A DNA stretch of 12,053 nt from a virus (lineage: Duplodnaviria; Heunggongvirae; Uroviricota; Caudoviricetes): IMG/VR virus record IMGVR_UViG_2850808358_000011, one strand, 5' to 3'. Positions 1,683-2,791 of this stretch are shown here, one piece after another. A program made the translations under genes and the position numbers. The notes under the pieces were generated by a model. The model worked only from the letters and a program-made list of their open reading frames with translations, ran no database searches and was not told where the DNA came from. The stretch's first letter is position 1; each line of letters starts with the position of its first letter.

Positions 1683-2210
1683 ATGATTATGGCTTTTTTA
1701 CTCTTTAAAATCAATCACTCAGCGCAAGTGAGCAAAAATAATTTGCAATATTGCTTGACTCGCTTTTTTGTCATGGCGTATCGTTTGCCCGCACCTCATA
1801 AAGCGGGTGCCGGGTTTAGCAGCCTGAACAATCAAGCGGGTAGCCGCTATATTTCCGTAATGCGGTTTTTTTGTGCCCGTAATTCCACCCTACCCCGTAT
1901 TATGGCGGGGCGTAATGGGGGAGCCTTTGCGCTCGCTGGTTCCTTGATTGCCAGTCTGCTAACCCTGTTACGTCCCGCCACCATGTTTAGCAGCGTGCTG
2001 GCGAGACTCCGTAAACTTAATCAAGGAGCCGCCAAAATGGCTATATCAACACGCCCTGATTTTATCTGGCGCTTTATGCAGTGCCACGGTAAAAATATTC
2101 GCCTTCATACCGTTACCGCTGCCAGTGAGCGCGAAGCGCGCGCCATGCTTCCGGCATCCCGTCTGGTCTTTGTTGCCCGTATCCGTGTCCGGGAGGCGTG
2201 CCATGTTTAA
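1683..2210 (+). CDS. Hypothetical protein, start uncertain; C-terminal part resembles short Icd-like/P4-type island proteins from memory only
   Basis: ORF track 1683..2210; stop TAA 2208-2210 overlaps the next ATG (2203). No convincing RBS at 1683 or at internal ATGs (1773, 1860, 1902); the candidate promoter at 1755-1784 would start transcription downstream of 1683. Confidence 0.4.
   Translation: MIMAFLLFKINHSAQVSKNNLQYCLTRFFVMAYRLPAPHKAGAGFSSLNNQAGSRYISVMRFFCARNSTLPRIMAGRNGGAFALAGSLIASLLTLLRPATMFSSVLARLRKLNQGAAKMAISTRPDFIWRFMQCHGKNIRLHTVTAASEREARAMLPASRLVFVARIRVREACHV
1755..1784 (+). promoter_or_regulatory. Candidate sigma70 promoter TTGACT-N18-TATCGT for the small-gene operon
   Basis: Read directly; strong -35 hexamer, moderate -10. 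No experimental support. Confidence 0.25.
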
Positions 2211-2385
2211 GCTCCTTATCACCCTGATTAACTACCAGAACGGCGACGTTCGCCAGATGATTCATTCCTGGGAATATCCGACTTATGACGATGCATGGCG
2301 TGATGCCTGTCGCATGGCATATTCCCGCAATGACAAACATGGGCGATTAACCCACAAATGCGCAGTAAAAATCATGGAGGGGTAA
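2203..2385 (+). CDS. Small hypothetical protein (60 aa)
   Basis: ATG 2203 with RBS GGGAGG 6 nt upstream; overlaps the upstream stop by 8 nt (translational coupling); sits inside ORF track entry 2125..2385. Confidence 0.5.
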   Translation: MFKLLITLINYQNGDVRQMIHSWEYPTYDDAWRDACRMAYSRNDKHGRLTHKCAVKIMEG

Positions 2386-2387
2386 CG

Positions 2388-2576
2388 ATGTACGAGATTC
2401 ATATTAAATTGCGTAATGTGGTAACAGGAGAGGAAGAAAACTTCCACACGATACGTAAATATAAATCAAAAGGAAAAGCAGTAAGGGGCGCTATCAGGTA
2501 TGTGGAAGAAATTGCGCCAAAATATCAATTGCCAGAAGAAGAACTCACAGCATCAGTGGTAAAGGTGAAGAAATGA
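2388..2576 (+). CDS. Small hypothetical protein (62 aa)
   Basis: ATG 2388 preceded by GGAGGGG; starts 3 nt after the previous stop; sits inside ORF track entry 2358..2576. Confidence 0.5.
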   Translation: MYEIHIKLRNVVTGEEENFHTIRKYKSKGKAVRGAIRYVEEIAPKYQLPEEELTASVVKVKK

Positions 2577-2791
2577 AAAGCCGTTCAATATCCCGTAAAA
2601 ATAATGGCAGTGGTGAAAAACGTTTCTTTGTGTTGGGTTATGCCGTTAATAAACGTGGGTTAACCAAACATGCACATGCAACGGTATACGGAACGGGACC
2701 GGGCGAAGCCATACGCCGCGCAGCCGAAGGACTGGAAGAGCTGGGAATGACTCACTTTAAGGCGTTAAAGGTGACGCAGCTTTCCGCCTGA
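2573..2791 (+). CDS. Small hypothetical protein (72 aa)
   Basis: ATGA start/stop overlap with the previous gene at 2573-2576; RBS GGTGA upstream. Confidence 0.5.
   Translation: MKSRSISRKNNGSGEKRFFVLGYAVNKRGLTKHAHATVYGTGPGEAIRRAAEGLEELGMTHFKALKVTQLSA

Follow-up and report, generated by a model that had tools for sequence, protein, structure and literature searches.

The window analysed here is a stretch of 12,053 nucleotides (nt) of viral DNA (IMG/VR record IMGVR_UViG_2850808358_000011) that corresponds to an island of about 12 kb adjoining hpt, and it is 90–98% identical to islands of Escherichia coli genomes. The segment at positions 1683–2791, upstream of the primase gene, carries an isrK/seqA-type leader element, a C4/CI-type antisense RNA element whose complementarity to flanking sites is maintained by covariation, and four coding cistrons joined by conserved junctions. 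We interpret the segment as an early operon under RNA-based immunity control, carried by a P4-type satellite island of E. coli, and put the probability that it is such an operon, working as P4 and the P1 immI locus do, at roughly three in four. Regulation of this type is already known and is well supported here by the covariation; the small proteins that the operon encodes are uncharacterised.

The first-pass annotation had described the segment as four tightly coupled small genes placed where P4 carries its helper-derepression and regulatory genes. The P4-like position is demonstrated by the matching order of elements in P4. The gene count holds for the three downstream open reading frames (ORFs), which read as real coding genes, and fails for the first, which is a composite of a promoter-like site, two RNA elements and a nested cistron of 57 amino acids (aa), icd57. 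Two thirds of the supposed first gene had thus gone unnoticed as regulatory RNA and promoter, as had the apparent antisense RNA control of the whole cluster. The elements of the segment are listed below. Ratios of nonsynonymous to synonymous substitution rates (dN/dS) for orf60, orf62 and orf72 were calculated from 12–14 loci (unique sequences only), variable columns are given by codon position, and structure confidence is the pLDDT (predicted local distance difference test) of AlphaFold2 (AF2) models.

1683–2210, plus strand: eta-like long ORF of 175 aa that takes in both the promoter and the RNA elements; its final part is the nested icd/kil cistron
1755–1784, plus strand: sigma-70 promoter-like site (TTGACT and TATCGT with an 18-nt spacer), counterpart of P4 PLE
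1791–1872, plus strand: isrK/seqA-type leader RNA with terminator hairpin and U-run (Rfam RF01394, 52.1 bits)
1898–1985, plus strand: C4/CI-type antisense immunity RNA (Rfam RF01695, 74.7 bits, E = 1.8e-13, full-length model 1–87)
1987–2030, plus strand: downstream C4 target sites, TTAGCAG at 1987–1993 and AATCAAGGAGCC at 2019–2030, the second lying over the icd Shine-Dalgarno sequence
2037–2210, plus strand: icd/kil-like gene, 57 aa, with its own AAGGAG, predicted first cistron from the internal promoter
2203–2385, plus strand: orf60, small alpha/beta protein, lineage-specific (dN/dS 0.48; AF2 pLDDT 94.2)
2388–2576, plus strand: orf62, small lineage-specific protein (dN/dS 0.37; variable columns 37/37/50)
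2573–2791, plus strand: orf72, basic 'GYAV' small-protein family, satellite-restricted (dN/dS 0.20; variable columns 26/20/55)

The C4-type RNA co-varies with its target sites

The C4 element is matched well above the Rfam gathering score of its family (45 bits), and the DNA of this region is 78–81% identical to the c4 region of P1 and P7. The corresponding isrK match in P4 scores 60.8 bits and has the same placement, directly after the promoter and before C4. The C4 loop (1938–1949) is complementary to 2019–2030 over 9–12 nt and to 1829–1836 over 8 nt, and a second stretch of C4 (1956–1962) is complementary to 1816–1822 and to 1987–1993, over 7 nt at the latter. The two upstream sites, 1816–1822 and 1829–1836, sit inside the isrK element and co-vary with C4.

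A comparison of the 13 loci of the island family reveals five loop/target specificities, and eight are found when P4 and loci L013 and L014 are included (16 loci). The C4 loop and both target sites always change together. In alignment A8, 98.0% of the cells are paired in the upstream interaction and 98.8% in the downstream one; each interaction contains eight pairs that have changed on both sides, with 29 and 28 compensatory cells, respectively. None of 500 shuffles was as good, and slid controls were paired at 23–55%. The pattern is the sequence signature of P1/P7- and P4-type RNA immunity, which would place the operon under control of that kind. The island family, otherwise near-identical, is a clean natural example of an RNA-based immunity that diversifies through three-way compensatory change.

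Two nearly identical islands, L010 and L011, differ in the C4 loop and in both target sites (window positions 1828–1837, 1940–1951 and 2019–2029), which implies for the immunity specificity either exchange or a more rapid evolution than that of the remaining island. A further complementarity of 15 nt, between 1791–1805 and 2070–2084, was dismissed, as it shows no covariation in the alignment.

A long eta-like frame encloses the promoter and the RNA elements

The promoter-like site at 1755–1784 is nearly invariant in nine loci; a distance of 6 nt separates it from the 5' end of isrK, and P4 has the same geometry. Codons 1–118 of the surrounding long ORF display no amino-acid constraint in the first coding analysis, which covered nine loci: dN/dS is 0.7–0.8 in all three frames, and the variable columns are distributed 30/32/32 by codon position. 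Constraint begins at the internal ATG at 2037. The 57-codon cistron that starts there is under strong purifying selection (dN/dS 0.16–0.18; variable columns 9/2/21), and the NCBIfam model NF033153 (53 bits; cut-off 25 bits) matches residues 127–169 of the long ORF only; phrog_1426 and phrog_1743 match as well. The first-pass annotation had recognised none of the genes with confidence, and in this one case a profile search was sufficient to identify an Icd/Kil homologue. Icd57 is Icd-like by profile; inhibition of cell division is known for P1 Icd, which targets FtsZ (PMC11897509), and P4 Kil has been reported to kill cells (PMC10111431).

The long frame has no stop codons, versus 7 and 10 in the other two frames, and stays open in 78 of 20,000 shuffles (0.4%). 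Every one of the 13 family loci has it open, with the ATG region unchanged, and it is open in P4 too. The part upstream of icd (1683–2036) was first taken as an annotation artefact because it lacks a coding signal; as a pure artefact it was dropped, the frame being significantly open and P4 eta being a documented translated long ORF of the same layout. In all 13 loci, 118 open codons precede icd; the frame surrounds the promoter together with the immunity RNA and is in phase with kil. According to the account in PMC10111431 that cites Forti 1999, P4 eta is a long ORF that holds the constitutive promoter, seqA and CI, with Kil as its truncated nested form; it is translated only from the upstream late promoter, and its translation prevents termination. 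We assign 1683–2210 to an eta/kil-type locus because of the P4 layout, this account of eta, and the relationship of IsrK to seqA together with the translational coupling described in PMC4825925.

A 64-codon ORF with a TTG start (1482–1676) overlaps the stop codon of the upstream alpA-like gene and ends 7 nt before the ATG at 1683; it could constitute a translation bridge from alpA into the long ORF. In RefSeq, the entire ORF of 173–175 aa is annotated as a 'host cell division inhibitor Icd-like protein' (L001, 9190–9711; L002, 9136–9657) and neither RNA is annotated, and in the P4 record the CI RNA is still overlain by a 'cI gene product' of 137 aa. The present assignment is of use for annotation, where both RNAs are currently omitted and the ORF is labelled Icd-like throughout.

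Conserved junctions probably couple the four cistrons

The stop/start overlaps listed in the first-pass annotation hold at every coordinate and are conserved in 13 related islands. The long ORF, which has its stop codon (TAA) at 2208–2210, overlaps the gene starting with the ATG at 2203 by 8 nt (ATGTTTAA), the stop codon of orf60 (TAA, 2383–2385) is separated by a 2-nt gap from the ATG of orf62 at 2388, and an ATGA at 2573–2576 is common to the end of orf62 and the start of orf72. Each of the coupled genes also possesses the Shine-Dalgarno sequence ascribed to it, purine-rich and 6–8 nt upstream of the start codon (GGGAGG before 2203, GGAGGGG before 2388 and AAGGTGA before 2573). An alignment with eight E. 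coli relatives shows that the three junction sequences are invariant in all eight while the codons beside them vary, and the ORFs and their lengths are repeated in the 13 loci of the family. In the Yersinia copy, the icd/orf60 junction alone is kept in full: orf60 is reduced to 7 codons, and a 2-nt insertion results in an overlap of 26 nt between orf62 and orf72. Translational coupling of the cluster is well supported.

Coding status and predicted structure of orf60, orf62 and orf72

To judge from their patterns of substitution, all three downstream ORFs are genuine protein-coding genes. In each of them dN/dS is lowest in the annotated frame, versus 0.74–1.56 out of frame (0.96 and 0.80 in the case of orf60), and orf72 displays a marked excess of variable third positions. 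Orf60 is intact in 12 of 12 E. coli-type loci, with an in-frame indel of 6 nt, and the length of orf62 is kept down to 50% protein identity. A (CATGCA)n repeat at about 2666–2680 in orf72 is in frame and encodes (His-Ala)n, with 2–4 units among the homologues.

Three of the five AF2 models of orf60 exceed a pLDDT of 92. The orf72 model has an overall pLDDT of 85.5, with a core above 95 and a beta-beta-alpha-beta topology. Both proteins are predicted, with confidence from shallow alignments, to form small beta-beta-alpha-beta(-beta) sandwiches. Fold matches are generic; the best one of orf72, which has an isoelectric point (pI) of 10.5, is the RNA-binding ribosomal protein eL20. A weak link connects orf60 and orf62 (hhalign P = 0.0018 over residues 1–40; hmmsearch E = 0.039). 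Tandem paralogy of icd57, orf60, orf62 and orf72 with a common beta-beta-alpha-beta fold was considered and is unsupported, as the other pairs are non-significant and the fold of orf60 and orf72 is generic. An assignment of the orf72 family to DUF7761 was likewise rejected: it came from one Klebsiella homologue with an E-value of 6.7e-4, below the cut-off, and was not reproduced in other members. Pfam returned no match at E ≤ 0.1 for orf60, orf62, orf72 or the 175-aa ORF, including the epsilon/Ash family PF10554, and sequence searches of the PDB gave noise only (for example, P2 Cox at E = 0.42).

The orf72 family occupies an exchangeable slot behind icd

In a set of 5.8 billion proteins, orf60 is represented by 8 clusters and orf62 by 13, all from E. 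coli or metagenomes, and orf72 by 15, Yersinia included. An exhaustive profile search with orf72 retrieved 14 representatives among 1.84 billion proteins. The family shares the motif F-x-V-x-GYAV-N-x-R-G-x-T and has distant homologues in four other genera; a tblastn search of 50,697 phage records detected none. The Klebsiella michiganensis and Tatumella homologues come straight after icd with overlapping stop and start codons, upstream of a primase and, where these are detected, downstream of isrK and C4; the one in Tatumella is followed by an ORF6N antirepressor-type gene. A second E. coli island family, which occurs in about 100–200 of 5,426 genomes, O157-type strains among them, has a 61-aa protein after icd with an overlap of 8 nt, and this protein is matched by the orf72 profile at E = 1e-12. 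For homologues behind icd in other E. coli islands, the A4 profile gives E = 1e-12 and 6e-11.

The homology with other icd-bearing islands ends exactly at the icd stop codon, at 2210, which makes the place behind icd an exchangeable slot for cargo. The orf72 family is rare and restricted to satellites, with orf72 as the conserved core and orf60 and orf62 as lineage-specific insertions.

Proposed mechanism

In the resting island, a constitutive promoter at about 1755–1784, within the long ORF, would make a leader RNA starting near 1791. This leader, with its seqA/isrK-type element and intrinsic terminator, would be processed into the C4/CI-type antisense RNA (1898–1985), two single-stranded stretches of which would pair upstream (1816–1836) and downstream (1987–1993 and 2019–2030). 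The downstream pairing would cover the ribosome-binding site of the 57-aa icd/kil gene. With icd untranslated, the coupled orf60, orf62 and orf72 would remain untranslated, and the RNA, open to premature termination, would leave orf99 (the next gene downstream) and the primase silenced as well. When transcription arrives from upstream, ribosomes would translate the eta-like frame from 1683 or 1689 through the RNA elements and so prevent both pairing and termination, and they would then be passed along the successive cistrons by way of the 8-nt overlap, the gap of 2 nt and the ATGA junction. We infer the processing of the leader into the C4/CI RNA, the termination of untranslated RNA and the switch to long-frame translation from P4, P1 and Gifsy-1.

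Several observations weigh against this interpretation. The isrK match is marginal, only 2 bits above the gathering score of 50. The eta-like ORF lacks the P4-type ATGA overlap with the alpA-like gene, from which it is separated by about 190 nt (alpA-like stop codon at 1487–1489; start at 1683 or 1689). The long frame is not universal, because it is absent from the Klebsiella locus L013, where only 8 codons are open. The primase gene of the window copy is frameshifted, so that the island may be inactive in this copy. Of the three downstream genes, orf60 has the weakest case: its dN/dS was about 1 in the nine-locus analysis, two of its five AF2 models are poor, and it is lost in Yersinia. Orf60, orf62 and orf72 match no functional family in Pfam, NCBIfam, PHROGs or PADLOC, and blastp against P4 eps, orf151 and orf106 (cnr) detects no similarity for any of them.

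Role of the small proteins

Under the proposed mechanism, orf60, orf62 and orf72 would be small soluble effectors made only on derepression, and most likely they manipulate the helper phage or the host. To judge from the P2-family capsid and ogr/delta genes of the island, the helper is probably a P2-like prophage. An effector role is suggested because P4 epsilon, P1 Ant and Gifsy-1 AnrP sit directly behind a small leader cistron. In all three systems, the small leader cistron is coupled to a gene that relieves the action of a phage repressor. A role in helper derepression proper we infer from position only, since the three proteins are unrelated to P4 epsilon, orf151 and cnr.

A more specific proposal, tentative and on balance unlikely, assigns different parts to the three proteins. 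The orf72 family would be a core satellite effector, always made with Icd under C4 control, and perhaps a helper-derepression or anti-immunity factor where epsilon is missing; it could, for instance, bind the helper repressor or the immunity RNA itself. Orf60 and orf62, perhaps distantly related to each other, would be fast-evolving, lineage-specific add-ons that adapt the island to particular helpers.

It is improbable that the cluster works as toxin and antidote, with Icd/Kil poisoning cell division, at least one of its coupled partners neutralising or tuning it, and no bearing on the helper. The inhibition of FtsZ by P1 Icd (PMC11897509) and killing by P4 Kil (PMC10111431) are compatible with such a toxin–antidote arrangement, as are the small size of all the proteins and the position of the orf72 family, whose genes nearly always follow icd immediately and overlap it. 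Nevertheless, no toxin, antitoxin or defence profile of PADLOC or Pfam matches icd57, orf60, orf62, orf72 or orf99, no DNA-binding autoregulatory domain is recognisable, and P4 and P1 carry icd/kil without an orf72 partner. The two genes that lie between icd and orf72 in the window further weaken the case for strict stoichiometric pairing.

A distinctly improbable function is that of replication accessories of the primase, in origin binding, loading or copy-number control. The same block, icd-orf60-orf62-orf72-orf9x, occurs with a different primase type (Zn_Ribbon_Prim/DUF927) in locus L016, and the slot after icd is therefore not a primase accessory; orf72 homologues accompany at least three primase types, so that they are not inherited together with any single replication module. 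Moreover, the small genes are separated from orf99 and the primase by a terminator-like hairpin. These observations outweigh the constant location of the small genes upstream of the primase in the same operon, the presence of P4 cnr, a copy-number control gene, in the same interval (PMC8628076), and the basic character of orf72 with its best fold match to eL20.

Finally, the notion that the small ORFs are not genes, and that 2203–2791 is an untranslated or incidentally translated spacer or leader of the primase conserved for RNA structure or Rho-utilisation sites, is very improbable indeed: it accords with the dN/dS of about 0.95 and flat codon-position variability of orf60 in the first nine loci, with a low synonymous divergence in icd and orf60 that possibly reflects nucleotide-level constraint, and with the lack of protein family matches and the deletion of orf60 in Yersinia, and is contradicted by the low dN/dS confined to the annotated frames, the third-position excess of orf72, the ORF length kept at 50% identity, the in-frame indels (6 nt and the His-Ala repeat), the confident AF2 models and the orf72 homologues in four other genera.

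We retain the view that the three proteins are most likely effectors directed at the helper or the host. Many P4-type and phage-inducible chromosomal island (PICI)-type satellites have no recognisable epsilon, and for the sensing or derepression of the helper in these, a conserved, satellite-restricted protein in the antirepressor position represents a concrete and cheap candidate.

Flanking genes and other features of the island

The following features flank the four-cistron block.

1112–1489, plus strand: AlpA-like excisionase/regulator gene (Pfam PF05930, E = 4.4e-07; phrog_2790, E = 6.5e-30), in the position of P4 ORF88
2830–2858, plus strand: terminator-like hairpin (2830–2851) and T7, closing the four-cistron block, with the orf99 Shine-Dalgarno sequence in its 3' arm
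2861–3160, plus strand: orf99, acidic protein in the position of P4 orf106/cnr (dN/dS 0.33; 94–101 aa in all relatives)
3208–5876, plus strand: primase gene of the Toprim type (phrog_1139, E = 1.8e-252), with a frameshift near 3511

Orf99 is a fifth gene between the cluster and the primase, and it has no family match in Pfam, NCBIfam or PHROGs. The stem at 2830–2858 keeps its pairing in Yersinia, where CGGCC/GGTCG has become CAACC/GGTTG. A second conserved intercistronic hairpin, at 3169–3195, flanks orf99 on the other side and likewise has compensatory changes in Yersinia. Both hairpins are terminator-like, and one of the two is usable on both strands.

A tblastn search places residues 1–101 and 103–889 of the primase in different frames, owing to a 1-nt deletion relative to locus L002. 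Deletions of 1–2 nt relative to intact relatives are found at about 3511, 7809, 7954, 8613, 8820 and 10806; they split the primase into 3157–3519 and 3579–5876 and cut MazF to 69 aa (10797–11006, minus strand). These deletions may be sequencing errors or signs of early decay of the island, because several of them lie in homopolymer runs. The strains ETEC6333 and TOE17 carry the island intact.

A second tyrosine-recombinase gene (5879–6880; Int_N and Phage_integrase) starts 3 nt past the primase stop codon and is conserved in all relatives; these additionally carry a separate integrase where the island ends. Between this recombinase and ogr/delta (8008–8190) lies a 54-nt inverted repeat, 7127–7180 and 7396–7449, whose arms are 85% complementary and 215 nt apart with TGTAACC-type motifs between them; an origin and a recombination site are both conceivable functions. 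The island, though satellite-sized, has a major capsid gene of the P2 family (9207–10619, and 8863–9348; PF05125, E = 9.8e-72). The capsid module moves within the island family, because it is found upstream of the eta-like ORF in relatives L004, L006, L007, L008 and L019. In several relatives a capsid gene takes the place of the alpA-like gene there.

Comparison with known systems

The core set of P4-like satellites comprises int, psu, delta, sid, alpA, epsilon as well as alpha (PMC8628076). AlpA and Ogr/Delta are present in the window and an integrase is present in the relatives; epsilon was not found, and Psu has no match among the ORFs scanned. The primase of the relatives belongs to Toprim_2/3 and not to the P4 alpha Pfam family.

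The order of elements in the window is the AlpA-like gene, isrK, C4, icd57, orf60 (with the 8-nt overlap), orf62, orf72, orf99 and the primase. In P4 (minus strand), the order is the alpA-like ORF88, isrK, C4 (the CI RNA), the 65-aa Icd-like kil, eps with an overlap of 8 nt, orf151, which overlaps eps by ATGTTTGA, orf106 and alpha. Both therefore have isrK and C4 matches in the same order, a long ORF that encloses the promoter and the RNAs, a nested Icd-like cistron overlapped by 8 nt by the gene that follows, an AlpA-like gene upstream and a primase downstream. By contrast, the genes after kil are unrelated, the window having no homologue of epsilon/Ash, orf151 or cnr, and the window differs further by a Toprim_2/3-type primase, a P2-family capsid gene of its own and a second recombinase.

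The immI locus of P1 and P7 (c4 RNA, icd and ant1/ant2) resembles the window in that the RNA loops have a pairing site over the ribosome-binding site of icd and in that icd is coupled to a downstream effector. In P1/P7 heteroimmunity, loop/target specificities differ between elements, as they do here. The effector of P1 is the antirepressor Ant, whereas the window has three unrelated small proteins, and P1 is a phage-plasmid rather than a satellite island.

In the isrK-orf45-anrP region of Salmonella Gifsy-1, an isrK-family leader with a terminator is likewise followed by a small ORF, and translation of this ORF is needed, via coupling, for expression of the downstream effector (PMC4825925). 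IsrK is a structural homologue of the P4 seqA RNA, and the coupling leads from orf45 to anrP (PMC4825925). Gifsy-1 differs in that the short IsrK activates translation in trans and the downstream protein is a recognisable antirepressor, whereas the window has a separate C4 RNA with covarying loops, for which repression is expected.

The closest counterparts of the cargo slot are found in the E. coli islands L021 and L023, Klebsiella L013 and Tatumella L015. Like the window, these have a C4-icd context upstream of a primase, and icd is followed by a 'GYAV' protein of 59–61 aa that is an orf72 homologue (A4 profile, E = 1e-12 to 4.5e-20). In all four, icd is overlapped by 8 nt by the homologue that comes straight after it, whereas in the window orf60 and orf62 stand between the two, and the neighbouring genes differ.

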